This document shows positions 885 to 33,383 of a stretch of DNA of 36,286 bases, piece after piece. The notes under the pieces are model-generated. The model did not search any database. It was not told the origin of the DNA and saw only the letters and a list, made by a program, of their open reading frames with translations. Source of the stretch: a virus (lineage: Duplodnaviria; Caudoviricetes); IMG/VR virus record IMGVR_UViG_3300032303_000779, positions 1 through 36,286 of that record. The stretch is one strand, 5' to 3'. How positions within the stretch are numbered: position 1 is the first letter of the stretch; the number at the start of each line of letters is the position of its first letter. The position numbers and the translations under genes are program-made.

Positions 885-890
885 TAAATA
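885..890 (+). promoter_or_regulatory. T4-late-type promoter box TAAATA ahead of the ejection-protein operon
   Basis: Intergenic ATAAATA, then AGGAG (904-908) and ATG 916; no -35. Confidence 0.7.
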
Positions 891-915
891 TACAATACAC
901 ATCAGGAGAAACAAA

Positions 916-1677
916 ATGAGTTTTGGAAAATCAGGCGGAGGCGGGACCACAGTTCAAACCCCGGAAATGACTCCTGAACAACGGGCACAAATTCAAGCAC
1001 AAACTGAATTTTTTACAAAAACCATTGCTCCCACATACAAACAAGCAGTTGGTGGTGCCACTGACCTTTACAATTTAGGTGCCCCAGGCGTGACCAATGC
1101 CGCACAGAACCTGGCTGGCACAGCAGGTAAAGCACAACAAACATTAGGATCAACTGGTGAAAGTGCCCTACGCACAGGTATCTCAGGATTAGAAAGCCTA
1201 TTCAGTCCTGACTACGAACAGCGTCAAATTCAAACAGCATTACTACCAGCACAACAACAGTATCAACAAAACTTGGCCAATCAAATGGCACAGTATGGTG
1301 GTGCAGGTAATTTAGGAAGTGCTAGAAGTGCTTTGGCTCAAACAGCCTTGGCTGGCCAAACACAAGCGGCACAACAAAAGGCTGCGGCAGATATACAAGC
1401 ACAAATTGCCGCACAACGCTTGTCAGCTGGTCAAAGCCTAGCTGGCCTAGGCCAAGGTGGTATTGGTCAAGCTCTTGGTGCAGCCGCTCAAGGTGTAAGT
1501 GCCGCTATGACTCCACAGCAATTGTATAACCAATACGCTAGTGTAATTTTTGGAACTCCAGCCGCTAGTTACACACCTGACTTCCGTGGCACAATCGGTA
1601 GCACAACTACTACAAATCAAACGGGTTACCAAGCTGGTATGGGCGGTGCATACGGTAGTAAACCGTTCTCATTCTAA
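916..1677 (+). CDS. Probable DNA ejection/pilot (internal virion) protein
   Basis: Gly/Ala/Gln-rich 253 aa, N-terminus MSFGKSGGGGTT, position after the tail genes as in podoviruses; good RBS. Confidence 0.65.
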   Translation: MSFGKSGGGGTTVQTPEMTPEQRAQIQAQTEFFTKTIAPTYKQAVGGATDLYNLGAPGVTNAAQNLAGTAGKAQQTLGSTGESALRTGISGLESLFSPDYEQRQIQTALLPAQQQYQQNLANQMAQYGGAGNLGSARSALAQTALAGQTQAAQQKAAADIQAQIAAQRLSAGQSLAGLGQGGIGQALGAAAQGVSAAMTPQQLYNQYASVIFGTPAASYTPDFRGTIGSTTTTNQTGYQAGMGGAYGSKPFSF

Positions 1678-1686
1678 GGTAGAACA

Positions 1687-3903: not shown

Positions 3904-4859
3904 TGGCATTAGACTACAGCAAGTTATCTACTGAAGAATTAGAAGCCATTGCCAATGATGATTACAGTCGTTTATCCACTGAAACATTGCAAGCATTGGC
4001 CGATGATCCAGATGCCGCAAAAGCACCTGGTGCAAAAAAGACTCCAGCTAGTTTAACACCACAAGGTGTTGATGTGGGTGATGCTGCCATGTTGGCCACA
4101 CCAGCACTGGCCGCTATAGCTCCTGCTATTCCGGGTGCTGTTAGTAGTGCATATCAAACAGGCAAGGCATTGGCAACTCCTGCGGCCAGTGCCGCACTTG
4201 ATTTAGGCAAGGCTTATTTGACCAAACCTGGAGCATTAGTAACTGATGTTGCTATGGGTGCTATGGGATTACCTCCTCCAACAGCAGCTGAACAAAGTTA
4301 TAAAGGTGTGCAAGGCACATATCAGACAGCAAGAGATTTGTTATCAAAACAGGGTCAATTTGCTCCCAAAGCCGCTCCGGTTGCTCCGGGACCATTTGCC
4401 GCAGCCGCAGAATTTCCAACAGCAGAACAAATTGCAAGAAATGCTACTTATACAGAAATGGCCGCAAGAGATGCCGCTGGAGCTGTTGCCAAACCAGGTG
4501 TAATGAGTCGTGTGGCACAAGGTGCAGGATCCTTATTATCCGGTGCCGGCACACTATTAAACAATGCTACACCAGCTATGAGCTTTGCTATGCCATATCA
4601 AATGGCTGGTGCCGAAATGGAAAAGATTCGGGCCAACCCCACAGCACCAGAATATGCTACCAATCCGTATGCACAAATGACTCGTGGTGAAGCCACAACA
4701 CAAGGAGCGGCCGGTGCTGCTAATCGTCGTCAAGCAATAGCCAGACAACAGTATGGTGGATTGACAGAAGCAGAACAACGCATATTAGAAAGCGATAGAT
4801 TAAATATGGCCATACGCTTACGGGCCGCAAAGAAAGTATTAGGACCAGTAGCACCTTAA
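3903..4859 (+). CDS. Ala-rich probable ejection/internal virion protein
   Basis: Coupled to the upstream gene (TAATG); N-terminal DYSKLSTEEL/DYSRLSTETL duplication. Confidence 0.55.
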   Translation: MALDYSKLSTEELEAIANDDYSRLSTETLQALADDPDAAKAPGAKKTPASLTPQGVDVGDAAMLATPALAAIAPAIPGAVSSAYQTGKALATPAASAALDLGKAYLTKPGALVTDVAMGAMGLPPPTAAEQSYKGVQGTYQTARDLLSKQGQFAPKAAPVAPGPFAAAAEFPTAEQIARNATYTEMAARDAAGAVAKPGVMSRVAQGAGSLLSGAGTLLNNATPAMSFAMPYQMAGAEMEKIRANPTAPEYATNPYAQMTRGEATTQGAAGAANRRQAIARQQYGGLTEAEQRILESDRLNMAIRLRAAKKVLGPVAP

Positions 4860-4868
4860 GGAAACCAA

Positions 4869-5306
4869 ATGACAGATCTAATCGAAAAATTAACCCAAGT
4901 ATTCAACACCAATTTTGTAACTTACTACAGAACACATGTAGCACATGTGAATATTGTGGGTCGTAATTTTTATAGTGATCACAAATTGCTACAAAAAATT
5001 TACGAGGAATTGCAAGGCGATATCGACACAATCGCCGAGTTTTTACGCACTTTAGCCGCAGTTATGCCAGAAAGTCTGGACACAGTTGTAAAAGGTTCTA
5101 AAATCGATGACGAGGATGTGTTTGGCACAGCAGATGAATTGTTGGCTGGTGTTTTAACTGATTTGACCACATTGATTGCCTTATACCGCGACCTAGAAGA
5201 AGAAGCTGACATGGCCGGCGAAGATCAAATTGCCAATTTTGCACAAGACCGCGAAACAGTGTTCAACAGATTTAGTTGGATGTTGCGTAGCACACTAGAA
5301 GAGTAA
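4869..5306 (+). CDS. dps: Dps-like ferritin-superfamily protein
   Basis: HVNIVGRNFYSDHKLLQKIYEE...DTIAEFLR and C-terminal WMLRS match the Dps signature; 145 aa; RBS AAGGA. Confidence 0.85.
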   Translation: MTDLIEKLTQVFNTNFVTYYRTHVAHVNIVGRNFYSDHKLLQKIYEELQGDIDTIAEFLRTLAAVMPESLDTVVKGSKIDDEDVFGTADELLAGVLTDLTTLIALYRDLEEEADMAGEDQIANFAQDRETVFNRFSWMLRSTLEE

Positions 5307-5309
5307 GGC

Positions 5310-5397
5310 GACACCCCGTTATATCTGCCGGAAACAGACTCCTGATGGAAAGCCACAAAAACTCAGGATTAGAGGACTAGCCTTGCGGTGGCTTGAC
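5310..5397 (-). ncRNA. Candidate small pseudoknotted RNA between convergent genes
   Basis: Interleaved stems TCCTGA(5340-45)/TCAGGA(5363-68) and AAGCCAC(5350-56)/GTGGCTT(5388-94); minus-strand TAAATA at 5403-5408 directly upstream. Confidence 0.35.
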
Positions 5398-5405
5398 ACA
5401 AGTAT

Positions 5406-6110
5406 TTAATCAGTCTTTCCAGAATAAATTTTCATTTCAGGTGCTGATCCTACAACTACAATTTGCGGTTGATGATCTTGATAATAGTAATCACCGGCTG
5501 CAGGAGCAGTAAAGCGTCCATCTGCTACCACTGTTTGCGGATTCACTGATTGATCAACCACAAATGTAGCAGTGCTCATACGCTTGTAAGCAATGCTGCC
5601 ACGCACACTATAACCCGCTGACGCATGTAGATGCATAAAAGCGGCCTGATCTCCACGCATGGTTGTGCTACAAATGATTTTGATATCACAGGCCTTGGCC
5701 CATGTTTCCCACATGCGTATCATCTGTGCCAACAACACAATTCTAGCACGAGCACTCAACTTTAAATTCACATGTGCTATACGCACAGCCACCATTTCCT
5801 CTGAGCTCCAAGGAGCATATTGTCCACGCATGGCCCAGGTATAGGCCAAGATCTGTTGTGTTTCGTTGTGTGTGGCCACACTGATCAATTCCTTACGGGG
5901 ATTGTAAAATTGATTTACCGTGGCCAACAACACATTGCGACTGTATTCAACAGGATCATTTTCAAATATTTGATCTGTTTCTAGTCCAAAATGACTTTGT
6001 GCCATGGCTGTGATCTCTTCGGTATCAGGTCCAGCAGCTGGACGCCAACGCCAAGGATCTGATTCAGTGTGTGCATACTTTTCTAAACCGGTGTCTTTGG
6101 CAGTTTTCAT
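5406..6110 (-). CDS. Probable GNAT-fold acetyltransferase-like protein
   Basis: Pattern ...VRIAHVNLKLSARAR...WETWAK...IICSTT...AAFMHLHASAGY resembles GNAT motifs A/B; degenerate. Confidence 0.5.
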   Translation of the reverse strand: MKTAKDTGLEKYAHTESDPWRWRPAAGPDTEEITAMAQSHFGLETDQIFENDPVEYSRNVLLATVNQFYNPRKELISVATHNETQQILAYTWAMRGQYAPWSSEEMVAVRIAHVNLKLSARARIVLLAQMIRMWETWAKACDIKIICSTTMRGDQAAFMHLHASAGYSVRGSIAYKRMSTATFVVDQSVNPQTVVADGRFTAPAAGDYYYQDHQPQIVVVGSAPEMKIYSGKTD

Positions 6111-6526
6111 ACCGTTTTCTCCGCGGTTGAATATGGTTCAGGTAGCAGGCCTTTGCGATCACGATAGCGTTTTTGTGCTGGACTACGCCAACCAGCAGCC
6201 ACAGCCTCACCTTGCATACGAGCATGTTGTTCACGGGTCACAATCATGGTGTTTTCTACAGTCCAAGGTGTTGACCAGTCCCGGCGTGTCATACAATAAC
6301 AGCCCTTTTCACGACCACGGTTCTCCCATTGCCCTGACTCAGCCCACATGTGTTTCCAATCCGCAAATGAAATAGTCCAACCTTCTTCTCTATACTGTGC
6401 TTGGTTCTTTTGCTGTATCCAAACTCTATATCGTTTGTGTTCCACAGGATCTGGTCCTGTGATCCACGCACCTGGCTTGGGTCCTCTTGTGTGTGGGCGA
6501 GGTATTCCTTTGGTTGACTTAGGCAT
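6107..6526 (-). CDS. HNH/His-Me finger-like endonuclease-family protein
   Basis: W..SGQWENRGR..GCYCMTR.D...PWTVEN.MIVT resembles phage beta-beta-alpha nuclease-like proteins; start set at MPKSTKG (6526), which overlaps the upstream stop. Confidence 0.5.
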   Translation of the reverse strand: MPKSTKGIPRPHTRGPKPGAWITGPDPVEHKRYRVWIQQKNQAQYREEGWTISFADWKHMWAESGQWENRGREKGCYCMTRRDWSTPWTVENTMIVTREQHARMQGEAVAAGWRSPAQKRYRDRKGLLPEPYSTAEKTV

Positions 6527-6911
6527 CGTATCCGTTCCCCGCATCAAATAATTGTCCAAATGTGGTTGATGGCTTGCGAAATGAATCGGTATTGGCTTGA
6601 ACCAATCTGGCCAATTCTGCATCATCCACGCAACGATACACTATGCGTGCCCGGCCATCTGCACTTACCACAGGCACACCCTTGGCGGTTGTTTTGTTTG
6701 TGCGTCGGAGTCCTTCATACACACCATAAGGATATGGGTCTGTGACCACATGATTCCATCCTGATCGTTTAAAATTTTTATATGCAGGATCCACTGTCAT
6801 TTCGTGTGTGGTTCCGTCATCTAGGCTTTGAAAGGTCAATCGCCAGAAACGCCCACCATTTAATTGGCTATGCCCTTCTTCACAATTGACCAAGATATAC
6901 TGATTGTCCAT
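6519..6911 (-). CDS. Hypothetical protein
   Basis: 130-aa ORF with AGGAG RBS (6921-6925) and TAAATA box (6938-6943) upstream on the minus strand. Confidence 0.8.
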   Translation of the reverse strand: MDNQYILVNCEEGHSQLNGGRFWRLTFQSLDDGTTHEMTVDPAYKNFKRSGWNHVVTDPYPYGVYEGLRRTNKTTAKGVPVVSADGRARIVYRCVDDAELARLVQANTDSFRKPSTTFGQLFDAGNGYDA

Positions 6912-6937: not shown

Positions 6938-6943
6938 TATTTA
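6938..6943 (-). promoter_or_regulatory. T4-late-type TAAATA box driving the 6911->5406 operon
   Basis: TATTTAT on plus = ATAAATA on minus, intergenic. Confidence 0.65.
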
Positions 6944-7144: not shown

Positions 7145-7159
7145 AGCTAATAATAACAC

Positions 7160-7630
7160 TATTTGAGATCTCTTGCGAGATCTATTGAGCAACTTCGTAG
7201 CTCAATGCGTTCTTTTAACTAATTAAGAGATCATTTGACAGATAGATTGATCAGAGTGCCACTATCCGAAGTAGTGGCGTATCTTTGACGAGTGAGTCGA
7301 TCCGTCGTTACCAGCAGGTGTTTAGTAAGTATTCGAAGTATTGCTTGGGCTCAACGCTTACCCAGACCTGCCGCGACTTTTAAGAGAACTTTTCAGTGGC
7401 TGTTTTGTTCTCATAGCAATAGTAATCTTCTAACCATTCCGATTACGCAAATCGTCATCCGTTCGTCAGGATTCTCAACTAATGGGACTATTCTTTCAGG
7501 CTACTCTTCAGTAGTGCGTAAAAGCCACCCGACAGATACGAGCGATTTGGTTGCCGTCACACATCAGAACGGATTCACCAGCACAATAGATATTCGGCGT
7601 GCCAACCTTGTCTGTAACTACATCTCCAAC
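7160..7630 (-). ncRNA. Large structured non-coding element (candidate ncRNA and/or replication origin)
   Basis: About ten stems, long-range and pseudoknot pairings, C(UUCG)G and GCAA tetraloops on the minus strand, TAAATA box directly upstream (7634-7639), no credible ORF. Confidence 0.65.
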
Positions 7631-7633
7631 ACA

Positions 7634-7639
7634 TATTTA
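7634..7639 (-). promoter_or_regulatory. TAAATA box at the 5' end of the large structured element
   Basis: CTAAATA on the minus strand, just downstream of a terminator. Confidence 0.6.
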
Positions 7640-7658: not shown

Positions 7659-7698
7659 AAAGAAAAACCCCCAAGATGGCTTAATAACTTGGGGGTTT
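7659..7698 (-). terminator. Rho-independent terminator
   Basis: 11-bp stem AAACCCCCAAG(7665-75)/CTTGGGGGTTT(7688-98) followed by a U-tract on the minus strand. Confidence 0.8.
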
Positions 7699-7790
7699 GG
7701 GTTCGCCGTTTTGTTGAAAGTTGGAGACTTAAACAGATAGGTTGGCTAGTGCAAAAACTTTAATTAACTAGAAAAAAGGATTTCCTGCAC
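7660..7790 (-). ncRNA. Candidate ~130-nt small RNA complementary to the 5' end of the large element
   Basis: Bounded by a CTAAATA box (7796-7801) and a terminator; 7720-7746 is an imperfect inverted copy of 7601-7630. Confidence 0.45.
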
Positions 7791-7798
7791 ACAAATAT

Positions 7799-8083
7799 TT
7801 AGTCTCGCGGCGGTATAGTGTAGAATTGTGGCGTCATTTCACCACGCAATCCACGGCAACAGGTCAACAACAGGGCACGATAATACCATTCTTCACTGAC
7901 CGGATTGGGTTCCAAACTGCTCCAGGTAAGTGCAGTTTCCCATTCGATCAGGATCTCATCCAAGATGTTTGGTTCAGTGTCACGAATAATCTGTTCTGCT
8001 GTGTTTAATACAACAGCCAATTCTTCAGGGCTACAAAAACGATGTGGCACAGGGCCTATCTGTTGTAAATTAACGACAATCAT
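7799..8083 (-). CDS. Hypothetical protein, probably leaderless
   Basis: 94-aa ORF; TAAATA (8089-8094, minus) 5 nt before ATG, no SD. Confidence 0.7.
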   Translation of the reverse strand: MIVVNLQQIGPVPHRFCSPEELAVVLNTAEQIIRDTEPNILDEILIEWETALTWSSLEPNPVSEEWYYRALLLTCCRGLRGEMTPQFYTIPPRD

Positions 8084-8098
8084 ATGAGTATTTACGGC

Positions 8099-8127
8099 TT
8101 GACACAGCCAAAGCCCTGTGTTATACT
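8099..8127 (+). promoter_or_regulatory. Consensus sigma70 promoter
   Basis: TTGACA(8099-8104)-17 nt-TATACT(8122-8127) with extended -10 TG. Confidence 0.85.
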
Positions 8128-8157: not shown

Positions 8158-8340
8158 ATGAACTTTGAACAACTCAAACTACAGATGCACATGAGAAGTC
8201 TTTACGAGCGTCTGGGCACAATGGATGCAGAGCTAATGATTGTTGAAGCTTTTCGTAAAGAAATGGCGAGGAACGACAGGATTCAAGCACTTGCGGCCGC
8301 ACCTCATAAGAACTTGACCGCATGCGATCCCAGCGTTTGA
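8158..8340 (+). CDS. Small helical hypothetical protein, likely early/host-RNAP expressed
   Basis: 60-aa ORF directly downstream of the sigma70 promoter. Confidence 0.55.
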   Translation: MNFEQLKLQMHMRSLYERLGTMDAELMIVEAFRKEMARNDRIQALAAAPHKNLTACDPSV

Positions 8341-8388: not shown

Positions 8389-8410
8389 TATTTACCCAAA
8401 CGGTTAAATA
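8389..8410. promoter_or_regulatory. Back-to-back divergent TAAATA boxes
   Basis: TATTTA 8389-8394 (minus) and TAAATA 8405-8410 (plus), each 8 nt from an ATG (8380 minus; 8419 plus). Confidence 0.6.
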
Positions 8411-8418: not shown

Positions 8419-8670
8419 ATGGCCAGACCAAAAATATCAGCAATAGAATCAACTAGAGTAGGCATGTTTGAATGGACAGTGGCCGAAACACCGGCCTACT
8501 GGGCAGTGCTACGCTATGAACAGCCCATCTACATAGTCAAGCAACACTGGTTGCAGGATAGAAAAAACTATCCCAGGACCACATTTAGCAACGCGGCACA
8601 TGCACAGAACTTGGCTGACAAGCTGAATGGCCTGTTTGAGACATCAGCCTATACCATAAGGAAATTATGA
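8419..8670 (+). CDS. Hypothetical protein MARPK...FSNAAHAQNLADKLN
   Basis: 83 aa from ATG 8419, just after the TAAATA box. Confidence 0.75.
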   Translation: MARPKISAIESTRVGMFEWTVAETPAYWAVLRYEQPIYIVKQHWLQDRKNYPRTTFSNAAHAQNLADKLNGLFETSAYTIRKL

Positions 8671-8765: not shown

Positions 8766-8807
8766 CTTGTTTGACCCAGGTTCAGATTCAACAGCATAAG
8801 TAAATGT

Positions 8808-9173
8808 ATGACAACGGAAAAACATTCAGATCATTCCGTCCGCGAAAAGATCAGTAGTCGCGGCGGTGCCAGAGCAGGTGCAGGCCGTCCCAAGGGTTCA
8901 ACTGACAAGCTGACCGCACGCCTGCTGTTGGAAACATGCCAACAGGTCATAGGCAAGCCATTTGAAGTCAGCCTGTTGGAAGGCTATAGAGATACCATAC
9001 TAAACGGTGATGCTCGCAACAGAGCCACATATGAAAAGATGCTGTTGGACAAGGTGTCCAGCACCTTGATCGAAGCAGAAGTAACTGACTCAGAAGATGG
9101 TGTTGCTGCCAAGGCCCTGGCATTCCAAGAAGCCCTGGCTAAACTGGCCTCTTTAAACGAATCAACTAAATAA
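8808..9173 (+). CDS. Probable terminase small subunit / DNA-binding protein
   Basis: RGGARAGAGRPKGS motif common at TerS-like N-termini; TAAGTA box (8797-8802) 5 nt before ATG; not adjacent to TerL. Confidence 0.5.
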   Translation: MTTEKHSDHSVREKISSRGGARAGAGRPKGSTDKLTARLLLETCQQVIGKPFEVSLLEGYRDTILNGDARNRATYEKMLLDKVSSTLIEAEVTDSEDGVAAKALAFQEALAKLASLNESTK

Positions 9174-9191: not shown

Positions 9192-9359
9192 ATGCCATTG
9201 ATCAAATCCAGTAGCAAAAAAGCAGTAGGCAAGAACATCAAACGAGAGATGGCAGCCGGACGCCCACAAAAACAAGCAGTAGCAATTGCTTTGACCGAGC
9301 GTCGTGAAGTAGCAAAAAAGCAAGGCCGTAAATTGCCTACAAAAGGAAAAACAAAATGA
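9192..9359 (+). CDS. 55-aa basic phage protein (not in ORF track)
   Basis: CTAAATA (9167-72), AAGGA RBS; MPLIKSSSKKAVGKNIKREMAAGRPQKQAVAIAL...; ATGA overlap with the next gene. Confidence 0.8.
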   Translation: MPLIKSSSKKAVGKNIKREMAAGRPQKQAVAIALTERREVAKKQGRKLPTKGKTK

Positions 9360-10907: not shown

Positions 10908-11225
10908 ATGAAAACAACCAAAAACCCACAATCCAAACCCATCAATCAGAAGCGTGGTCCAACCACAGGCAATGGTAACGACGGTGAAAAACGCAAGACA
11001 TTTATCAAAGAAAAGGCCGACTCAGGCAATGAACGCACACGCTTGGCAGACTTTGTTATGGATGCCTTGGCCATGCGTGGTCGCGGTATGGCACCCAGCA
11101 TTGATCCAGCCTTGGAGAACATGAGCCCCAACAGTGGCCGAACTACAGGCATCAGCCGTAATCCCACAGCTGGTGGCACCCGATACAATGTCAAGAGCAA
11201 GACCCCAGGCAAGATCACTAAGTAA
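10908..11225 (+). CDS. Small basic hypothetical protein
   Basis: RBS AAGGA; INQKRGPTTGN resembles the motif in 9356..9757. Confidence 0.7.
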   Translation: MKTTKNPQSKPINQKRGPTTGNGNDGEKRKTFIKEKADSGNERTRLADFVMDALAMRGRGMAPSIDPALENMSPNSGRTTGISRNPTAGGTRYNVKSKTPGKITK

Positions 11226-11231: not shown

Positions 11232-12554
11232 ATGAGTTACGGCACAAGTTCTGGCAACTCTGGCACTGGCACAGGTGGCAAGAGTGCCGGTGGTAATCCC
11301 AATGTGATTGGTGGTTATCAACCCACACAACAAGCACAAACAAATTTCAGTCAAGGTGTAGCCACACAGCCTGGTCCCACACAAGGTGGGCTCAACAACA
11401 TTGGTGGAGTCAATGCAGGACAAGGGTTTGATTCAGCCGCACAAAATTTAAATCCATATGGCCCCATGGGCATGAGTTCGCAGACTGCGATTGGTGGGTC
11501 TGCTGGACAGTCTACAGGGACTGACTTGGCACCTATTATGATGGGCTATGTGGGCAGTGGTATAGCAGGTTGGGGACCCAATGGGGAAGGTTCCTATTTG
11601 AAAATGAACGCTGGTAGCCCAATTGGTCTACCCAACGGACAACAGTTGGACTTGAGTCCACAGTCGCAACAGCCACTGCCACAGAATAGTTTATTTAAAG
11701 ACTTTGGTAACGGTTATATGATGGACCAAAATGGCATGAATTTAGGCCCGGGACAAACAGATCCGTTTGCCCAGTATGGTCAATACGCTGACCGTATGCG
11801 GCAAGAGTTTGATACAATGAAAAACAATTATATTTCAGGAGTTAATAGTCCTGGTGCTCGGAATGAAGCCAATGATCAATATTATTCTAGTCCTGAAGGA
11901 TTTATTAACAATCAAGCAGATCAATTCTTAAACCAATATAAAATAAACGATTATTATACTAATAATAATCCAGACCAAAACCCATTTAACCAAAGTGGAA
12001 ATTATTGGAACCGTGGCATTGATTGGGACACAGGCTTGGACTATGGTCAAGGTGGCGAAATATATTCGGGTGGCCAACTTTACATACCACAGGGCAATGA
12101 CACTTATCTCAATGTTAACACTGGTAAAATAATGCGGCAAGAAATGCCCGAACAAGATCCTAATAATCCATTTGGAATTTTTATTGGTGGTAGTCCTAGG
12201 CCTGTATTCAAAGAGTATACTCAACCAGGCCAACCCGCACCAGCTCCAGTTGCCCGTCCAGTGGCACAACCTGTAGCCAAACCAGCACCTGCACCAATGC
12301 CCACACGGGCCACGCAGGGCTATGTGAGCCGTATACCCACAAGACCCACCAGTCCTGTGCCAGTCAAGGCACCTGTCAAGGCACCTGTCAAGGCACCTGC
12401 TCCTGCACCTAAACCAGTGGCCAAACCTGCCCCAGTGGCCAAACCTGTGGTTCAATCAGTGGCCAAGCCCGCACCCAAGCCTGTGGTTCAACCGACGGCC
12501 AAGCCAGTGGTAAAGGCCGCAGTAAAAGCCCCAGTTAAAATAATCAAACGCTAA
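11232..12554 (+). CDS. Low-complexity protein with Gly/Gln N-terminus and Pro/Ala/Val/Lys repeat C-terminus
   Basis: 440-aa ORF; PVKA/PVAKP repeats; CTAAGTA (11218-24) 7 nt before ATG. Confidence 0.75.
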   Translation: MSYGTSSGNSGTGTGGKSAGGNPNVIGGYQPTQQAQTNFSQGVATQPGPTQGGLNNIGGVNAGQGFDSAAQNLNPYGPMGMSSQTAIGGSAGQSTGTDLAPIMMGYVGSGIAGWGPNGEGSYLKMNAGSPIGLPNGQQLDLSPQSQQPLPQNSLFKDFGNGYMMDQNGMNLGPGQTDPFAQYGQYADRMRQEFDTMKNNYISGVNSPGARNEANDQYYSSPEGFINNQADQFLNQYKINDYYTNNNPDQNPFNQSGNYWNRGIDWDTGLDYGQGGEIYSGGQLYIPQGNDTYLNVNTGKIMRQEMPEQDPNNPFGIFIGGSPRPVFKEYTQPGQPAPAPVARPVAQPVAKPAPAPMPTRATQGYVSRIPTRPTSPVPVKAPVKAPVKAPAPAPKPVAKPAPVAKPVVQSVAKPAPKPVVQPTAKPVVKAAVKAPVKIIKR

Positions 12555-12606
12555 ATAAAGATACTTGCAGAGCAAGTTTGTAGTATAGAATAGAAAAGGT
12601 AACGCA

Positions 12607-13413
12607 ATGAAAAAAACAACTCCCACCCCTGAATCCAAAACGCTTGATACCGAAGCCAACCCCTGGAACGACGCCGCAGTTGATCCTGCTGACACCGTTA
12701 CCATCAAAGAACAAATCAAAGAAACCATTGTCAAGCATGCTATTGAAACAGAATATGATTTGGAAGGTCTCATGAATGACTTCCCAACAGCTACCGAATT
12801 GGAACGCTTTGTGTATGACCAAACTGGCTACACACTCAACCTGAAAGGTCGTGCCCAGAAATTAAAATACCAAGTGGCCATGGATGTGTTGAATGGTGAG
12901 TCAGTTGATCCAAAATTCTTGACCGGTGACAATCCCTACATTGACCGTGCTGACCTGGTGCCAGTGGAAGACCTTCGTCCAGTGCCGCCTCGTGCCGCAG
13001 ACTTGCCGGACGAAACAGAACTACAAAATCAATTTTACACACCATTTATTCCACATAGTGATGCGGACTATCGTGCCCGTGGCAAGAAAGTTCATACAGT
13101 GTTTCGCAAATACAAGAACGGCATGATTTCATATGAAGTGTTGGGACCAATCGAACCCAAGGCCATTGGTGAAAAGATGGACAAGTTTGGCAAGATGCGT
13201 CCCGAACTGATGAGCTGGGTAGACCCACGCACAGGCGAACAAGTGGTAGTGCGTCGTGATGGCACCTTGACTCCACAAGGTCGTAATTTACGAGCTATCA
13301 TGCAGAAGATGCGTGTGAACAATACCAATCATTGGGAAATGTGGGTCAACCGTGACTTTGTAAATCTAGAAGGCGGTGAGCTACTAAATCCATGGGACAC
13401 AGACGCAAGTTGA
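12607..13413 (+). CDS. Hypothetical protein heading the terminase operon
   Basis: 268 aa; CTAAATA (12551-57) and AAGGT RBS upstream. Confidence 0.8.
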   Translation: MKKTTPTPESKTLDTEANPWNDAAVDPADTVTIKEQIKETIVKHAIETEYDLEGLMNDFPTATELERFVYDQTGYTLNLKGRAQKLKYQVAMDVLNGESVDPKFLTGDNPYIDRADLVPVEDLRPVPPRAADLPDETELQNQFYTPFIPHSDADYRARGKKVHTVFRKYKNGMISYEVLGPIEPKAIGEKMDKFGKMRPELMSWVDPRTGEQVVVRRDGTLTPQGRNLRAIMQKMRVNNTNHWEMWVNRDFVNLEGGELLNPWDTDAS

Positions 13414-13664: not shown

Positions 13665-15269
13665 ATGATAGATCCAGGCGTGCTGATGCGTCGTGCCCTG
13701 CGTTGGAGTTTGGAAACCAATGACCTCAAGCTGGAAAGCCTGGCCTTGATGGATCATGTCACACGGCAACATTTTGAAGATTTGGCCATGGCTGTAGCAG
13801 ATGACATGCAGTATAATCAACTGAAATACTTCAGGCCGTTTGATCACCAAAGGAAATTTTTTGAAACATATCATTCAGATCGTAGAGGCATACTTGCGGC
13901 GAACCGGATTGGCAAAACGGTATCCACATGCTATGAAACAGCTATGCACCTTTCGGGTCAGTATCCTGCGTGGTGGACGGGTCATAGGTTTGATCATCCC
14001 ATTACAGCCATGGTTGCAGGCGAAGGCTGGAGTCAAGTTGCAATGGTTCTACAAAACGAATTATTAGGCACACAGGATGTAAAGATCCGAGATCAATTGG
14101 GCACAGGAGCCATACCGCGGTCAGTCATCATAACAGAAACCATGCGGTCGGACGGTGCCAACTGTATGGGTGTAGAGATACGCCATCCGCGAGGCAAAAG
14201 CTACTTGTTGTTTGCCAACTACACACAGGAAACTCGTCAAATGCAGGGTTTCAAACTGAATCTGGCTGTGTTTGATGAGCAGCCACCAGATGACTTCTTC
14301 AGTGAGATAGTTACCAGAACAGCCACAACACAAGGAAAGATCCTATGCTCATTTACACCATTAAAAGGCTTGAACGGACTTGTCTCCAAGTTTTGGAATC
14401 GCGAGGCCGGTTACGATTTCATAAGAGTCGCGTGGGACGATGTTCCCGAATACGACCCATGGGGCGAAGCTTTCTTGCTAAAAGAAACACGAGCACAACT
14501 CGAGCGAGATTACTTGCCGCACGAACGCGAAGCCCGTATTGCTGGCAAACCCGTTATGGGACAAGGTGCTGTATTCCAAATCCGTAACTGGCCCACTTAC
14601 AAAACAGGTGACTACAACTTCCGTGAAATGAACAATATACATCGTATCATTGCCCTGGACTTGGGCTTGGTCAACGACAGAACAGTGATCAGCCTCATGT
14701 ATTGGAATCCCTACGAGCGTTGTGCTTGGTTGCATCGTCAAATCTGTGTGAGTGGCATTGAAGAAGCCAATCCCACTAACTATATCAATCACTTGATGCG
14801 TCCCGAAGTGTTTGGCACACCCATAGTGCTACCTGCAGATGGTGGAACACAGGGTCGTTATACCATGAGTGCCCTAAGCATTCGTGAACTGTTTGAGCAG
14901 TATGAATTGAATGTGTGGCCCAAGCCCATAATGAATCCGCCAGATGATCAAGGCAGGACCACCAACCATAAGGCCTATGGTATCAACCAGATGCGTCAAA
15001 TGCTGGAAGCCGGAACCTTTATGGTCAACGAAAACTGTGTGGATTTCCTGCGTGAAGCTCAAAACTACTATGTGGATCCACAAGGGCGTTTTAGTGATCC
15101 AGATGACACCATAGACTCAGCCCGTTATGCCCTGTTGGGTTGCCTAAATGACATTGCCGAACCTTGGGATAATCGCACAGCCCGCGAGCGTATGGCTGCC
15201 CAAAGAGACCGAATCCGTATGCCCCAACCCAAGTCAGCTGAATGGAAGAAAACTTTCAATCCAGGTTGA
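13665..15269 (+). CDS. terL: Terminase large subunit
   Basis: Walker A AANRIGKT, Walker B AVFDEQP, motif SFTP, RNase H-like ALDLG and DDTIDSARY. Confidence 0.95.
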   Translation: MIDPGVLMRRALRWSLETNDLKLESLALMDHVTRQHFEDLAMAVADDMQYNQLKYFRPFDHQRKFFETYHSDRRGILAANRIGKTVSTCYETAMHLSGQYPAWWTGHRFDHPITAMVAGEGWSQVAMVLQNELLGTQDVKIRDQLGTGAIPRSVIITETMRSDGANCMGVEIRHPRGKSYLLFANYTQETRQMQGFKLNLAVFDEQPPDDFFSEIVTRTATTQGKILCSFTPLKGLNGLVSKFWNREAGYDFIRVAWDDVPEYDPWGEAFLLKETRAQLERDYLPHEREARIAGKPVMGQGAVFQIRNWPTYKTGDYNFREMNNIHRIIALDLGLVNDRTVISLMYWNPYERCAWLHRQICVSGIEEANPTNYINHLMRPEVFGTPIVLPADGGTQGRYTMSALSIRELFEQYELNVWPKPIMNPPDDQGRTTNHKAYGINQMRQMLEAGTFMVNENCVDFLREAQNYYVDPQGRFSDPDDTIDSARYALLGCLNDIAEPWDNRTARERMAAQRDRIRMPQPKSAEWKKTFNPG

Positions 15270-15294
15270 CAATAAATTCACACAGTTGTATACT
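15266..15294 (+). promoter_or_regulatory. Consensus sigma70 promoter of a moron gene
   Basis: TTGACA(15266-71)-17 nt-TATACT(15289-94), ATG 6 nt later. Confidence 0.85.
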
Positions 15295-15300
15295 GTGTGT

Positions 15301-15684
15301 ATGAAATGGTTAATTGTCCTGGTGTTTTTTGCCGCCTCAGTTCAAGCACAAACAGTGCCAGACTTGGCCATGCGTGGACAATTTGATCTACCCAGCAACA
15401 TAGTTAAAACAGTTGTGGTCCGGGGCTATGGTGAAACACCTGCACTAGCTCGACATGATGCGTTTAGAACTGCTGTAGAACATGTGGCCGGCATAGCTAT
15501 AGTATCAGAAACACAAGTTCATAACTGGCGTATACAGCGTGATCAAACAGCAACCTACAGTCAAGCACAGATCTCCAGCTTTCATGTGTTGAGTATGGAA
15601 ACTACTGCCCGAGGTTGGCAAACACAAATGTGGGTCACTGTGCGTAGTGCCTGCGAACGCAGTTCTTATAACTGTTCTAACTAG
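15301..15684 (+). CDS. Secreted/periplasmic protein (LPP20/FlgT-N-like fold), moron
   Basis: Signal peptide MKWLIVLVFFAASVQA; V.V.GYG.T...A...A...AVE..AG..I.SET pattern. Confidence 0.7.
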   Translation: MKWLIVLVFFAASVQAQTVPDLAMRGQFDLPSNIVKTVVVRGYGETPALARHDAFRTAVEHVAGIAIVSETQVHNWRIQRDQTATYSQAQISSFHVLSMETTARGWQTQMWVTVRSACERSSYNCSN

Positions 15685-19591: not shown

Positions 19592-20749
19592 ATGGCAGAA
19601 ATTACAACAAGTCAAATTGGTAACGGAACAACAGCTTATGGTGCTGATATCGTTGTCAAAGACTTAGACCTAGATGTATCCAATCGTGTAAAAGACGATA
19701 CCCCTGTATTGAACATGTGTATGACTAAAAAGCGTAAAGTAAACTCTACTTTGCCATTATGGACAGACGATATCTATCGCTTGCCAGAAACTCAAGCATG
19801 GACTGAAGGTGCTCCGGTATCTACAGCACAAGCTGAGTCAAACAGTCGTTACAACTTGGCCAACTACACACAGATTTTTGCAACAACAGTTGCAGCATCT
19901 GGAACAGCTCGTGCTGTTATGCAGTCCGGTGGTGATCCACAGGCTTACCAAGAAGTCAAACAGTTGATCGAACTCATGTTCGATGTGGAACAACAGTTGG
20001 TTCGTAATGACCAAGTTGGCACACAATACGGTGGACAAACTGGAACAGCTGGTGGTGCTACAGGTAACACACAAACTGGTCGTCGTATGGGCTCATTGAG
20101 TTCTTTTGCTGGAACACAAAGTTTCAATACAACAGCTGGTAACGCAACCGTTGGTATCACAACCAATGTGAACAATGCTAGCACAGACAGTTCAAGTGCA
20201 ACAGCCAATACATTCACAATGAACAGTAACGGCACAACATTCTACACTGGCACATTTACAAACCAGTTGTTCAGCCCAATCATCTACAAGCAGTTGGTGA
20301 CCACAGCAGAACAGCGTTACAATGCTAAGATCCGCACTATTGTGGCTCCTACAAGTCTACGCACAATGTTGAGTGATACATTCCCAACTTCAAGAACTAT
20401 CAACCGTGTAAACTCTGAGCGTGGCGACACAATTCAGACTTACGAGGGCGATTTCTCATACACATATGAGATTTTTGACAGCTGGATCATGGACCAAGCT
20501 GGTGTTTCAAACAGCATCTACTTCCTGAACGAAGAAGTGTTACAATGGGGCTCCTTGCGTGACCTCGGTCCTAACAACGAAGTGTTCAGTAATGCGGACG
20601 CTAGTTTAGACCAGTTCATCATGGAAGGCACATTGATCGTGCGTAACCCAGCAGGCGTAGGTATGTTAAACAACATCTCTACAAGTGGTGCGTCAGTTAC
20701 AACAGCTCGTCCAAGTGCTTTGGTTCAAAGAGCAACAAACACTTACTAA
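19592..20749 (+). CDS. Major capsid protein (HK97 fold, DUF5309-like)
   Basis: DTPVL..., W..D, EG, NYTQIF...V..SGTA.AV, EGTL.V.NP motifs; strong AAGGAG RBS; followed by a terminator. Confidence 0.9.
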   Translation: MAEITTSQIGNGTTAYGADIVVKDLDLDVSNRVKDDTPVLNMCMTKKRKVNSTLPLWTDDIYRLPETQAWTEGAPVSTAQAESNSRYNLANYTQIFATTVAASGTARAVMQSGGDPQAYQEVKQLIELMFDVEQQLVRNDQVGTQYGGQTGTAGGATGNTQTGRRMGSLSSFAGTQSFNTTAGNATVGITTNVNNASTDSSSATANTFTMNSNGTTFYTGTFTNQLFSPIIYKQLVTTAEQRYNAKIRTIVAPTSLRTMLSDTFPTSRTINRVNSERGDTIQTYEGDFSYTYEIFDSWIMDQAGVSNSIYFLNEEVLQWGSLRDLGPNNEVFSNADASLDQFIMEGTLIVRNPAGVGMLNNISTSGASVTTARPSALVQRATNTY

Positions 20750-20773
20750 TCTTTAAGATTAGGGAGTTAAGAC

Positions 20774-20800
20774 AAAAGGCCTTCGGGCCTTTTGTTGTTT
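20774..20800 (+). terminator. Rho-independent terminator with C(UUCG)G loop
   Basis: AAAAGGCC-TTCG-GGCCTTTT-GTTGTTT. Confidence 0.92.
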
Positions 20801-20828
20801 GTATAAACCCAGTAATACACAAGCCGAC

Positions 20829-20834
20829 TAAATA
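20829..20834 (+). promoter_or_regulatory. TAAATA box restarting transcription for the tail operon
   Basis: CTAAATA just after the capsid terminator, 6 nt before ATG 20841, no SD. Confidence 0.75.
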
Positions 20835-20840: not shown

Positions 20841-21431
20841 ATGAGCCAAGACCAAAATAAACCAGAAATTATTGACACCAGCCGGGTAGATTACAACTAC
20901 GATTATCTAAGACAAGATGCAGGCGGCATTATAACTGCACATAATGGCGTTGGTGACCGTTTGTTAAGCAAAAACAACAAGTTATACCGTGCTATGAAGG
21001 GTGATTGGAAGCGTGAGGGCTGGAACGGCAGTCAAAATATCAAGACAACAACTGGACGCCAAGACGGTAAGTTTTACATTACCCGCGAACAGATGAACAC
21101 AGAGGCAATCAAAAAACGCTGTGCAGAATACCGTGCAGGTGCTGAAGCTGGCATGGTTGATCCCTTAGCACCTTACATGCCCGATGGCGGTATTGGCTAC
21201 AAATGGATGGACTTGCCAGATGTTATTGCTATCCGTATCAGCGATCAATACTTTGGTGGCATGCCCTGGAGTGTGGTCAAATTGGACAAAACATTAAAAG
21301 CACAATTTTATCGAGTAGTGCAACAGGAATATCCAGAATATGTGTGCTATCCAGGTGGCCGATTACCTATTCCAATTGATGTTCCATACCCAGCTAAGTC
21401 TGGAGAAACAAAATTCTTTAAAGGCATTTAA
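20841..21431 (+). CDS. Hypothetical protein following the capsid gene
   Basis: 196-aa ORF, leaderless arrangement. Confidence 0.75.
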   Translation: MSQDQNKPEIIDTSRVDYNYDYLRQDAGGIITAHNGVGDRLLSKNNKLYRAMKGDWKREGWNGSQNIKTTTGRQDGKFYITREQMNTEAIKKRCAEYRAGAEAGMVDPLAPYMPDGGIGYKWMDLPDVIAIRISDQYFGGMPWSVVKLDKTLKAQFYRVVQQEYPEYVCYPGGRLPIPIDVPYPAKSGETKFFKGI

Positions 21432-26701: not shown

Positions 26702-27082
26702 ATGCCAATGACACAATATTTAGAAAACAAGGTGCTGGATGGCACCTTGAAGGCCACAACCTACACAGCTCCTGCCAATGTGTATATGGCTCTTTACAGC
26801 ACAACAAACACAGCCACCACACCAGGTGATGAATTGACTGGCAACAACTACAGCCGTCAGTTGGTCACATTTAATTCAGCCAATGCAGGTATCAGCACAG
26901 GCAATGCCAATGTCACATTCAGTGCCACTGGCAACACTTGGCCAACAGCGATCAGTGCAGCCATTATGGATGCCAGCACCAGTGGCAACATGCTTTACTT
27001 TGGTAGTATAACACCCAAAGCAGTGGCCGCAGGAGATACCCTGGTGTTTGATGGTGCCAACATAGTGATCACAATATCATGA
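26702..27082 (+). CDS. Small tail-fibre-associated structural protein
   Basis: YLENKVL...YMALY...ELTG.NYSRQ.VTF...DAST.GN.L pattern common in tail modules. Confidence 0.7.
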   Translation: MPMTQYLENKVLDGTLKATTYTAPANVYMALYSTTNTATTPGDELTGNNYSRQLVTFNSANAGISTGNANVTFSATGNTWPTAISAAIMDASTSGNMLYFGSITPKAVAAGDTLVFDGANIVITIS

Positions 27083-27225
27083 TACAAATAGGCGGTGGTA
27101 TCACAATCGGAACTGGCATCATCATAGGCAACTCGCCTGTGTTTGTTACCATTACGGATTTTATTACCGAGGATGCAAACAACTTGATCAGTGAAAACAG
27201 TGATCAGTTTATTGAGGAAAATTAA
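27079..27225 (+). CDS. 48-aa probable fibre adaptor peptide (not in ORF track)
   Basis: ATGA overlap; MIQIGGGITIGTGIIIG...FITEDANNLISENSDQFIEEN; fills the gap exactly. Confidence 0.7.
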   Translation: MIQIGGGITIGTGIIIGNSPVFVTITDFITEDANNLISENSDQFIEEN

Positions 27226-29512: not shown

Positions 29513-29524
29513 CAAGGAACAAAC

Positions 29525-31186: not shown

Positions 31187-32947
31187 ATGGGAACATTTGC
31201 TGTTACTAACGACAATGAGGTAATGTCTGCGGTAAATTATCTCTTAAGCAATCAAGGACAAGGCACTGGCAATGGCAATGTAGTAATTCCAGGTAATGTG
31301 TTAGTAGCCAATACTGCCACAGGTGCTGTGACTCAATATGGCAATACCGATGTGTTGTTTTATAAAAATCAATTTATTAATTTAAGATATTCAAACAATG
31401 CCACCGGCACTGCTGGGTTTAGTCCCAGCAGTGACAATTACAATTATTTTGGAGTTTATAATAGTTCTACATCAACTCCATCTACCAATCCGGCAGCCTA
31501 TCAGTGGACACAGGTCAGTCCTGGGTTTAATTCTGCTTCAAGTAGAACACTGTATTACAGTTCAATAGGTGGTCGTCAAATTGTATTTGCGGCTGCTAGT
31601 AGTCCGCCTAGTAGTGCGTTTGTTGTGAGCACTGCCAATGTGGCCATAGATCTTGACATTGTAACAACTGCCAACGGAACACCGGGCAGTCGTGGTCCTA
31701 TTCCAATGGGTTATGTGATTACCACAGCCAATCCTGGGAACGCTTCAACTTCAACCCTGACCGGTTGGTTTGAAGCCAGCAGAACTGCCAACACACCTCC
31801 AATTGGAACCGGACTAACACCAGTAGATGGGGACACTGCTTATTTTGCGTATCCTACTACCGGTGCCAGTAGCACATTTACCTACAACGGTAGCACCTGG
31901 ATCAGTGCAGTAGGACAAGTTGTGTCAGGTAATACCTTGGTGGCCAACACAGTTACAGGCACTAGTCTGGCACCCAGCACCATAACTGGTGACAAGATCA
32001 CTGGCAATACCATAACTGGCAACTTGATTGTGGCCAGCACAATTACCGGCAATTTGATAGCAGCCAACACCATAACTGGCAACACTATCCAGTCCAACAC
32101 CATTACCAGCAACAACATTGCAGCCAACACCATTGTGGCCAACAACATAGCTACTGGCACGCTGACCACCAATCTGTTTACAGCCAACACCATTCAAGGC
32201 AATGTTATTTTGGCCGGCACTATCACAGCAGAACAGTTGGCAGCCAACGTGCTCATAGCCAACACAGTAATATCAACTGGTGCCACAATTGGTAATTTCA
32301 ACAGTTCAGGTTTTTGGTTGCAAGGTTCAACAGGCAATGCTCGCTTTGGCAACACAGTCAGCATTGGTAATCAACTTACCGTGGGCAACAATGCCACCAT
32401 AGGTGGTAATTTAACAGTGACAGGTTTGATCAGTGGCGGCGGATTAAATTCCAACACAGTATCAACCAACACAGTAGTGCCATTAAGCATCAGTAGTGGT
32501 GCGGGCGTGACCACTGAATCTAGTCAAATATTTTCAAACTTGGCACAAAATACTATTGTTAGTTCTAATTTGACATTGGATTTTACCACAACAGAAAACA
32601 ATCAACCTTTGTTTGTGTTTGCTGGCGTTCAAGCTGGCGTTCAATTTACAACCATTTCTGGTAGTGTGGATGTAACTGGATTTTTCTATCTACGCAGAAC
32701 AAATCTCAGCACTGGAGTTATAACTTCTTTGTTTGATCAGATATTTGACGTAAACAATGTGACCACAGCAGATGGTAGCACAGCATTCTTTTATCCAACC
32801 TGGACCGGAGTGGCTGACACAGTTCCTGCTGCAGGCACCTATAGATATAGCATTGCTTTTCAATATGGAAAGACTGGCACCACCAGTGGATCTACTATCT
32901 TTTATTTCTTAGGAAGAACCTGGTTGGTTCAAACACTCAAACGATGA
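31187..32947 (+). CDS. Tail spike/fibre with 10-aa (NTITGNLIAA-like) repeats
   Basis: Beta-helix-type repeats in the middle; followed by a chaperone gene. Confidence 0.65.
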   Translation: MGTFAVTNDNEVMSAVNYLLSNQGQGTGNGNVVIPGNVLVANTATGAVTQYGNTDVLFYKNQFINLRYSNNATGTAGFSPSSDNYNYFGVYNSSTSTPSTNPAAYQWTQVSPGFNSASSRTLYYSSIGGRQIVFAAASSPPSSAFVVSTANVAIDLDIVTTANGTPGSRGPIPMGYVITTANPGNASTSTLTGWFEASRTANTPPIGTGLTPVDGDTAYFAYPTTGASSTFTYNGSTWISAVGQVVSGNTLVANTVTGTSLAPSTITGDKITGNTITGNLIVASTITGNLIAANTITGNTIQSNTITSNNIAANTIVANNIATGTLTTNLFTANTIQGNVILAGTITAEQLAANVLIANTVISTGATIGNFNSSGFWLQGSTGNARFGNTVSIGNQLTVGNNATIGGNLTVTGLISGGGLNSNTVSTNTVVPLSISSGAGVTTESSQIFSNLAQNTIVSSNLTLDFTTTENNQPLFVFAGVQAGVQFTTISGSVDVTGFFYLRRTNLSTGVITSLFDQIFDVNNVTTADGSTAFFYPTWTGVADTVPAAGTYRYSIAFQYGKTGTTSGSTIFYFLGRTWLVQTLKR

Positions 32948-33369
32948 CCTACACTATCTATGATCCGGCCACTGGCCAAATACTCAGTGTGTTGACCACC
33001 CATGATTTGTTGCAAGCGGAAACAAATCTTGCTGACAAGAGTTATATTGCCGGAGAATATTCTGGCCAACACTATTATATTGAATCAGGCCAAGCAGTTG
33101 AAAAGGCCGAGAAACCCAGTAGATCACATGTATTTGATTACTCTACCAAGACATGGCAATTGGATCAGGTGCACAGTGAGGCACAGGCCAGACGACAAAG
33201 AGATTCAGAATTGTCTGTTGTGGATCGTGTAAATCCTGTTTGGTATGCCAGCCTGACTGCGGATCAACAGGCCGACCTTGTGGCTTATAGACAACAACTG
33301 TTGGCAGTGCCTCAACAGGCTGGCTTCCCAACTGCGGTCGTTTGGCCAGCTAAACCCACATGGTTATAA
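32944..33369 (+). CDS. Tail fibre assembly chaperone
   Basis: AYRQQLLAVPQQAGFPTAVVWPAKP C-terminal signature. Confidence 0.85.
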   Translation: MTYTIYDPATGQILSVLTTHDLLQAETNLADKSYIAGEYSGQHYYIESGQAVEKAEKPSRSHVFDYSTKTWQLDQVHSEAQARRQRDSELSVVDRVNPVWYASLTADQQADLVAYRQQLLAVPQQAGFPTAVVWPAKPTWL

Positions 33370-33377
33370 GGAACCGA

Positions 33378-33383
33378 TAAATA
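33378..33383 (+). promoter_or_regulatory. TAAATA box
   Basis: ATAAATA 5 nt before ATG 33389. Confidence 0.65.

Follow-up and report, generated by a model that had tools for sequence, protein, structure and literature searches.

Which factor directs transcription from the TAAATA boxes that precede the virion genes of a podovirus in which no gp55 could be found? The question is raised by IMG/VR record IMGVR_UViG_3300032303_000779, the whole 36,286 nucleotides of which are referred to here as the window. The genome is that of a circular podovirus, 100% complete with a terminal repeat. A first-pass annotation had proposed that T4-late-type promoters (TAAATA/TAAGTA) form a genome-wide network which ties gene expression to the late phase of a helper.

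The window contained 17 copies of TAAATA (eight on the plus strand and nine on the minus strand) and six of TAAGTA. As the TAAATA total was not above the Markov expectation (16-21, orders 1-4), the signal was positional: 10 of the 17 copies had a start on their own strand 5-70 nt downstream (p = 4e-11) and TAAATA ranked first upstream among all hexamers present in the window, above the Shine-Dalgarno word. It occurred in 10 of the 39 upstream regions compared to 1.97 ± 1.31 (maximum 7) in 1000 dinucleotide shuffles of the same regions. When 20 podoviruses were pooled, 185 of 406 TAAATA sites (46%) were upstream, compared to 6-16% for 14 anagrams; stop codons accounted for only 23 of the 185. 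Enrichment over AT-rich background, on which the proposed network depended, was therefore borne out against both anagrams and shuffles. TAAATA ranked seventh or better in 18 of 19 relatives, and at orthologous sites the hexamer was invariant while its flanks drifted. The claim that the boxes lack a -35 element also held, as the best TTGACA match scored 3.10 compared to 3.22 in controls and no TTG peak was found at spacings of 12-25 before TAAATA. The full T4 octamer TATAAATA had 0 copies in the window, where the form was [C/A]TAAATA, like that of Aeh1 and CBB. An ATG peak without a Shine-Dalgarno sequence lay 11-12 nt from the start of the box, and roughly one third of TAAATA sites abut an ATG; these are predicted to be leaderless, 5′-ends being predicted from spacing alone. 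Their sequence marks the TAAATA boxes as conserved signals near gene starts that belong to the T4 late-promoter type. TAAGTA, which had been put forward as a variant, was upstream at two of its six copies in the window and at 29 of 242 in the pooled podoviruses; this signal appears weak overall, with ortholog support only at 8797.

All 15 sites listed in the first-pass annotation, and both of its internal minus-strand sites, exist, those on the minus strand having been cited by their low coordinate. The site at 4801 was absent from that list. The features of the window are as follows.

885-890, plus strand: TAAATA, 31 nt before the gene at 916-1677 (plus strand), which opens a putative ejection-protein unit; Shine-Dalgarno present; 10/11 orthologs.
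4801-4806, plus strand: TAAATA, 68 nt before dps (4869-5306); 2/11 orthologs.
5403-5408, minus strand: TAAATA on the stop codon of a GNAT-like gene, antisense into dps; not an operon start.
6938-6943, minus strand: TAAATA, 32 nt before 6519-6911, upstream of HNH-like and GNAT-like genes.
7150-7611, minus strand: ORF-free structured element, probably an RNA, common to gp55-encoding jumbo phages and other small phages.
7634-7639, minus strand: TAAATA; the structured element has its conserved start approximately 28 nt further on.
7659-7697, minus strand: hairpin with U-run between sites 7801 and 7639, read by eye and outside the terminator-scan list; four relatives have a hairpin with U-run at this place.
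7796-7801, minus strand: TAAATA overlapping the stop of 7799-8083; G002 retains it despite a different upstream gene.
8089-8094, minus strand: TAAATA-N5-ATG at the start of 7799-8083, for which a leaderless message is predicted; a sigma-70 promoter adjoins it, facing the other way.
8099-8127, plus strand: host sigma-70-type promoter (11/12) before a 60-aa ORF at 8158-8340; also in G001, G002 and G034.
8389-8394, minus strand: TAAATA lacking a curated gene start; 14 nt from it is the start of a 68-aa ORF that runs antisense to 8158-8340.
8405-8410, plus strand: TAAATA before 8419-8670, the product of which has a 33% homolog in the jumbo G024.
8797-8802, plus strand: TAAGTA-N5-ATG variant before 8808-9173, whose product is putatively TerS-like by its motif; 9/9 orthologs have TAAATA at 10-12 nt.
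9167-9172, plus strand: TAAATA, 25 nt before 9192-9359.
11219-11224, plus strand: TAAGTA overlapping a stop codon; a 440-aa gene specific to the lineage starts 13 nt on; uncertain.
12552-12557, plus strand: TAAATA, 55 nt before 12607-13413; 8/10 podovirus orthologs.
13665-15269, plus strand: terminase, downstream of the 12552 site and 12607-13413.
15266-15294, plus strand: sigma-70-type promoter (11/12) before a small ORF (15328-15684) with a hydrophobic N-terminus.
15717-15722, plus strand: TAAATA, 28 nt before the portal-scaffold-capsid unit; 11/11 orthologs, absent in MW202484.
15745-18021 and 19592-20749, plus strand: portal and SU10-type capsid, families by profile search.
20771-20834, plus strand: capsid terminator (20771-20796), then TAAATA at 20829, with the tail unit starting 12 nt on, predicted to be leaderless; 10/11 orthologs.
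33378-33383, plus strand: TAAATA-N5-ATG before a 1238-aa ORF running across the circular junction to 859.

Placement at operon starts thus stood as a positional enrichment of TAAATA, but only 6943 and 8094 of the six listed minus-strand sites precede a curated gene. At gene ends, the sites 5408 and 7801 coincide with stop codons, the former not being an operon start, and no curated start is near 7639 or 8394, which had been read as gene-boundary promoters. Both 7801 and 7639 front conserved non-coding units; 7801 would yield a short non-coding transcript. The restart of transcription directly past the capsid terminator was confirmed in layout. "Genome-wide" was an overstatement, as conserved host sigma-70 promoters are present alongside the gp55-type boxes.

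The window phage encodes its own terminase, portal, capsid, tail and fibre genes. Its capsid and portal are SU10-type, and no T4-like Gp23 capsid, gp55 or replisome was found. Comparison of 38 proteins with PHROGs and Pfam gave no match to replication genes, leaving room for unrecognised initiators, and none to lysis genes or to an integrase, which residence in the manner of PICIs, P4 or PLE would call for. No tRNA or tmRNA was found. The reported lack of gp55 was supported: none was found in the window, a gp55 HMM run against six frames of 22 small genomes had a best E of 2.2, and profile comparison gave gp55 a probability of 0.2-0.3%. For several core proteins no fold is known, and sequence searches of the ESM Atlas and PDB left 12607-13413, 20841-21431 and 8808-9173 unexplained. 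The family is common, with 559 capsid matches in IMG/VR; in GTDB genomes only two matches were obtained, both on short MAG contigs that assign no host: one contig of 3.2 kb, and a 60% relative located on a contig of 22 kb.

Natural controls came from relatives that encode replication or lysis functions themselves. MW202484, which encodes ERF, SSB, Cro, RusA and GH19, had TAAATA at 1/17, and L103 had it at 0/12 core genes. Genomes G036-G039 (own Rep, Sak and endolysin, with a spanin in G036) had it at 1/11, 2/12, 2/12 and 0/9, respectively. The motif is therefore absent from these autonomous relatives (0-2 sites each).

Jumbo phages use the same box. TAAATA ranked first in all seven large jumbo contigs analysed, and a gp55-type sigma factor was detected in G024 (E 1e-75) and G022 (E 1e-70), as well as in G021, G020, G023, G026, G027 and G028. 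Two classes of box-to-start spacing, including the predicted leaderless class, are common to the small phages and the jumbos: at 10-14 nt a Shine-Dalgarno sequence was present in 4/53 small-phage genes and 1/32 jumbo genes, compared to 53/79 and 48/62 at 23-35 nt. A comparison of logos showed the same TAAATA core and spacing but a different preceding base, which was C in 90 of 181 podovirus sites and A in 87 of 162 jumbo sites (p = 2e-9); three further jumbos favoured A and only G019 was mixed. As this base mismatched in the seven jumbos tested, no exact helper is named. Sigma-70-type words were TATAAT in jumbos and TTGACA-17-TATACT in podoviruses, so the housekeeping sigma factor of the host looks E. 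coli-like. Three small phages have exchanged genes with jumbos at 55-72% identity. The closest isolates to the candidate helpers were PA5oct/MIJ3 (Wroclawvirus) and RaK2-like phages, with gp55 identities of 49% and 41%, and the order gp55-gp47-gp46-baseplate-portal-capsid was the same in both groups. The helper is probably PA5oct/RaK2-like and not T4 proper. For one such jumbo phage gp33 and gp45 are reported as undetected (PMC5259590), and a reporter built on T4 gp55/gp33/gp45 may therefore be unsuitable; in five jumbo fragments Pfam models matched neither gp33 nor gp45, and their controls were not matched either. Tail-fibre searches for a helper returned only small or weak matches. Diverged kin of the jumbos turned up in each of the four runs of a single study, one run possibly being the source; so frequent an occurrence lends no support.

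The conserved ORF-free element of about 450 nt at 7150-7611, fronted by the minus-strand box at 7639, was also found in jumbo phages of approximately 350 kb that are PA5oct/RaK2-like and encode the gp55-type sigma, and an unrelated small siphovirus lineage has both the element and the TAAATA motif (ranks 2-40). Covariation was detected, 16 of 22 pairs changing on both sides compared to 0/500 shuffles; single-sequence folding was unremarkable (z -1.0), and it is covariation only that argues for a structure. The central 19-mer is invariant because it was used as the search query. Rfam gave 0 matches at gathering score (best E 0.13, far below the cut-off) and blastn against INPHARED none. Within the 20 podoviruses, an own primase/helicase or PolA-like gene was carried by 0/6 genomes with the element and 10/14 without it (Fisher, p = 0.011, kinship ignored). 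Four of the 20 had neither the element nor a recognised primase; PrimPol carriers were confined to one part of the portal tree, with their module at a different place in the genome, and in G003 a gene with a PolA fold (Z 11 to Klenow) occupies the slot of the element. A distant form in the autonomous G036-G039 lineage weakens a role as helper origin. The element was not detected in the syntenic stretches of PA5oct (26 kb) or RaK2 (22 kb), the former having an ORF-poor gap at its place. GC skew was rejected as evidence of an origin: the minimum in G024 and G022 tracks the switch of gene strand at gp55, was not near the element in G019 and fell within 0.7 kb of it only in G021.

We infer from these comparisons, with a probability of about 0.65, that the window phage is a virion-autonomous satellite which would take late transcription, and probably replication and lysis, from a gp55-type PA5oct/RaK2-like jumbo helper; this phage and its relatives would then likely assemble particles only in cells that such a jumbo has also infected. 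Of the promoter mimicry first proposed, a candidate helper class sharing motif and spacing has been found; dependence on it is what the gene content suggests. After entry, expression would be limited to the small sigma-70 units (8099 and 15266). The helper late sigma, on host RNA polymerase, would then switch on approximately ten TAAATA promoters serving the units for head, tail, packaging and ejection, and one third or so of the messages would start at AUG as predicted for the jumbos. Promoter 7639 would produce a structured RNA in place of a primase or initiator, allowing the helper replisome to copy the genome, a step about which our doubt somewhat outweighs our confidence. Lysis would be left to the helper. 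A wider reading is more tentative: a large and as yet undescribed guild of small phages, comprising at least one podovirus and one siphovirus lineage, may parasitise T4-like jumbos, building its own virions, using helper gp55 for virion genes and helper lysis, and carrying a captured RNA of ~450 nt that is a jumbo replication origin or primer replacing its own primase. The element would be a candidate new structured RNA common to jumbo and small phages, with a possible role in jumbo-phage replication.

A host alternative sigma factor, or a state such as starvation, might instead read TAAATA without any helper, host enzymes replicating the genome. This is decidedly unlikely, although the box is common to unrelated small phages, dps is present in all 11 clustered genomes, the base before the hexamer differs from that of the jumbos and RCTAAATA resembles what we take to be the alphaproteobacterial -10 consensus. 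It is opposed by the lack of a -35 or TTG signal and the absence of the box in autonomous relatives; to our knowledge no bacterial sigma reads a lone invariant TAAATA. It also leaves the missing replication and lysis matches and the jumbo-shared element unexplained.

We see only a small chance that an unrecognised late factor is encoded among the small core genes, the motif being a descendant of the gp55 box or convergent with it. A number of core genes lack annotation and the sigma-70 early unit could supply such a factor, but HMM and profile comparisons showed no gp55 similarity, the sigma-sized candidates are GNAT-like (2aj6, E 0.012) or also present in the motif-less MW202484, and siphovirus G035 has the motif yet no blast match to those core families. 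A similarly small chance attaches to facultative exploitation, in which the phage persists or grows slowly through sigma-70 read-through and gp55-type promoters boost virion production when a jumbo destroys the shared host. The conserved promoter at 8099 is directed towards the morphogenesis region, and the only terminators listed on the plus strand from there to the end of the capsid gene are weak intragenic matches, so read-through is possible; moreover, 10 of the 20 podoviruses keep the motif though carrying their own primase/helicase or PolA-like gene. Against it, the capsid terminator is followed by TAAATA in 10/11 genomes, an order that would leave the tail unit without another promoter, and no lysis or integrase matches were found. 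That the sites simply reflect AT-rich junctions between genes, or stop codons, and have no promoter function is barely credible, since the unremarkable total count and the minority of sites on stop codons are outweighed by the anagram and shuffle controls and the ortholog footprint, which contradict it.

Satellite dependence through a helper late sigma can be set against known systems. The T4 late promoter is given as TATAAATA at -13 to -6, that of Aeh1 as CTAAATA and that of CBB and GAP32 as ATAAATA, in CBB before structural genes (PMC1524935, PMC2988020, PMC5259590). The boxes of the window resemble T4-family late promoters, as described there, in having a single -10-type box with a TAAATA core, no -35, a position before virion genes and a spacing that would place +1 approximately 6 nt downstream (here predicted from spacing). 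They differ in their [C/A]TAAATA consensus and in that about one third abut ATG; T4-family phages, as so described, encode gp55 themselves, whereas none was detectable in the window phage. MiniFlayer and MulchRoom, satellites of Streptomyces phages, likewise have their own encapsidation machinery and miss key replication genes, and MiniFlayer is non-integrating (PMC10690885, in excerpt). Their helpers are siphoviruses (PMC10690885), in a paper that uses the word "promoter" 0 times, whereas a helper sigma factor is the link proposed here, from genes alone. Its general account has P4, PICIs and PLE integrating, encoding replicases and taking helper capsids or tails (PMC10690885, in excerpt); unlike these, the window phage encodes a head, a tail and a terminase itself and gave no integrase match. 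A literature search, its coverage mostly outside subscription journals and supplements, returned no report of such a system and no satellite of a jumbo helper class. In P4/P2, the helper protein Ogr activates the late promoters of the satellite, and the expression proposed here would similarly be keyed to a helper protein. If the proposal is true, these phages are a common, undescribed kind of virus parasitising another virus, and a gp55 box without gp55 would be a trait, readable from the genome, by which satellites could be picked out from complete phage genomes that look ordinary. What known satellites obtain from their helpers is capsids, tails or replication; to make a whole virion and yet borrow the late sigma of the helper would be a novel form of dependence.

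The window represents a complete phage genome, circular and 36,246 bp long, whose ends overlap by 40 nt (completeness 100%). Comparison of 38 window proteins with PHROGs and Pfam (a few ORFs <50 aa were left out) identified terminase, SU10-type portal and capsid, podoviral tail and fibre proteins, a 738-aa SLT-domain protein, Dps and a DUF3820-type small protein; none of the 38 matched a polymerase, helicase, primase, initiator, integrase, sigma factor, holin or spanin. The 'endolysin' labels were confined to the SLT domain of the virion-like 738-aa protein. Queries taken from autonomous phages (endolysin, spanin, Rep, Sak, exonuclease) were run against six frames of 22 genomes and matched only MW202484, a relative originating from Manatee Spring. 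By gene content, the window phage is a candidate satellite virus. The following features were located in the window:

33389–36246 plus 1–859: 1238-aa Pro/Thr-repeat low-complexity protein spanning the circular junction, predicted leaderless, strongly variable among relatives
4869–6110: core genes, Dps (11/11 clustered genomes) and a GNAT-like gene (10/11)
5408: TAAATA site aimed antisense into dps
7150–7611 (−): ORF-free structured element
7659–7801 (−): putative promoter-to-terminator unit of ~130 nt, containing a block conserved in four relatives; possibly a small RNA
15266–15684: small ORF with a hydrophobic N-terminus, predicted to be sigma-70-driven, inserted between terminase and portal, a gap in which other relatives carry different inserts
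27079–27222: 48-aa ORF between fibre genes

TAAATA occurred 17 times in the window, at Markov expectation, and 10 of these copies lay 5–70 nt upstream of a start on their own strand (p=4e-11, rank 1); after shuffling, the 39 window upstream regions held 1.97 ± 1.31 copies rather than the 10 observed. When the window and 19 other podoviruses were pooled, 185 of 406 TAAATA sites were upstream (23 of the 185 being stop codons), compared to 6–16% for each of 14 anagrams. Intragenic copies, sense plus antisense, were scarcer than every anagram (175 versus 348–624). The sites listed by the first-pass annotation all exist in the sequence, the upstream enrichment it proposed to check is a real positional excess, and the absence of −35 boxes was borne out, as no −35 signal was found at TAAATA sites. 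Its six minus-strand operon starts were wrong in four cases, its list omitted 4801 and the sigma-70 promoters at 8099 and 15266, and it made too much of TAAGTA (29/242 upstream, pooled).

From 559 IMG/VR capsid matches, 19 near-complete relatives were picked by length. TAAATA ranked seventh or higher in all of these (18 of 19) except G007, where it came 38th. In front of orthologous genes the hexamer stayed fixed amid drifting flanks; it preceded portal in 11/11, genes 916 and 20841 each in 10/11, and gene 8808 in 9/10, the window copy of the last being TAAGTA. Two box-to-gene spacing classes were apparent in the podoviruses, with a Shine-Dalgarno sequence at 4/53 genes spaced 10–14 nt versus 53/79 spaced 23–35 nt. 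As the T4 late box is described as spanning −13 to −6 (PMC1524935), the 10–14 nt class is predicted to be leaderless. The motif was missing from two more distant relatives, MW202484 (1/17, rank 1738; capsid identity 57%), which is annotated with ERF, SSB, Cro, RusA and chitinase, and L103 (0/12 core genes; 60%). The TAAATA boxes are a real, conserved network of predicted promoters.

Sites 7801 and 7639 face the structured element. Its conservation reaches 82% in the relative G002, and it could also be detected in G001 and G007. Across 28 sequences, 16 of 22 pairs changed at both partners and 94% of cells paired, the structure having been derived from the alignment on which it was tested and six pairs within the search word being uninformative. 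None of 500 shuffles reached the observed covariation, and slid controls dropped to 33–48%. G-U variants suggest that the element is an RNA; it had no Rfam match. This undescribed, strongly covarying element (copies L119–L237) was present in three small-phage lineages and in jumbo phages, where it mostly follows a GIY-YIG gene. Among the 20 podoviruses, six carried the element, ten a PrimPol/helicase (7) or PolA-like (3) gene, none both and four neither (p=0.011, kinship ignored). In G003 a PolA-like gene occupies the element's slot, and its model resembled polymerases of family A (Z 11.1, rmsd 5.8, 265 aligned); in G016 such a gene lies in the same region. The PrimPol modules are located elsewhere. 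The element may act in priming or as an origin, a role proposed here with fairly low confidence. Stand-alone 370–550-aa proteins of family A polymerase fold with an HDG motif (L295:5747–6991, L288:3624–4727, L279:1431–3068) had no Pfam or PHROG polymerase match and may resemble TV-Pol primase-polymerases.

A siphovirus lineage unrelated to the podoviruses (G035, G040–G045, G049) has both the element and TAAATA enrichment (ranks 2–40). Its complete 27–31 kb members G035 (L293–L294) and G042 (L297–L298) form a second candidate satellite family; the 22 and 14 proteins scanned included no replication or lysis match. A third lineage (G036–G039) encodes its own Rep, Sak, endolysin and spanin (G036) and lacks TAAATA enrichment, which supports a tie between TAAATA and the missing functions; its element is a distant form (branch 1.31), so this putative RNA family extends beyond satellites and helpers.

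A 19-mer from the element matched ~210 IMG/VR stretches, and 10 of 17 contigs tested among these encoded T4-type Gp23, their completeness values implying genomes near 350 kb. These jumbo contigs encode a gp55-type late sigma, closest to those of PA5oct (49%) and RaK2 (41%). In the majority of jumbo loci the element is preceded by gp55-gp47-gp46-GIY-YIG; the G019 copy lies after a FolE-like gene. TAAATA ranked first in 7/7 large jumbo contigs analysed, and the spacing classes of four jumbos matched the podovirus ones (Shine-Dalgarno 1/32 and 48/62). For CBB, a related isolate, PMC5259590 describes ATAAATA before structural genes and a gp55-like gene, with gp33/gp45 undetected; basal gp55 transcription on core polymerase works without the clamp, but weakly, according to PMC2988020. 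Genes common to small phages and jumbos were 72% (G034–G019) and 59% (G035–G025) alike, the GIY-YIG gene beside the element of siphovirus G049 was 55–58% alike to jumbo genes, and the window's own jumbo-shared genes just 33–34%. In PA5oct, an ORF-poor gap (75,700–77,180; L275:9700–11180) lies where environmental jumbos carry the element; it gave no HMM match for the element and corresponds to none of the four ncRNAs that PMC7318152 lists.

From these sequence comparisons, the promoter network is most likely read by the late sigma of a jumbo helper (probability about 0.65). The −1 base, chiefly C in podoviruses, was chiefly A in jumbos (p=2e-9), a mismatch by which a different gp55 phage may be the real helper. 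Read-through from the sigma-70 promoter at 8099, a type also present in G001, G002 and G034, is possible and would count against reading by a helper. A late factor of the phage's own is unlikely, though one could lie among the unexplained core proteins. The proposed lack of gp55 held when an HMM built on three gp55 proteins of jumbos was run against six frames of the 22 small genomes (best E 2.2) and when phrog_234 was run against the window (nothing at E 10). Two sigma-sized core families had no profile similarity to gp55, and one of them resembles the GNAT 2aj6.

Neither gp55-keyed satellites nor this putative structured RNA turned up in the literature searched, and PMC13282480 does not mention satellites. 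The window promoters are predicted to work like T4-family late promoters, although the phage itself is not T4-like. The Ogr protein of P4/P2 is a precedent for satellite promoters that a helper activates. With no integrase match among its 38 scanned proteins, the window phage falls outside PICI, P4 and PLE. In gene content it agrees with satellite viruses of the MiniFlayer type as described in PMC10690885.
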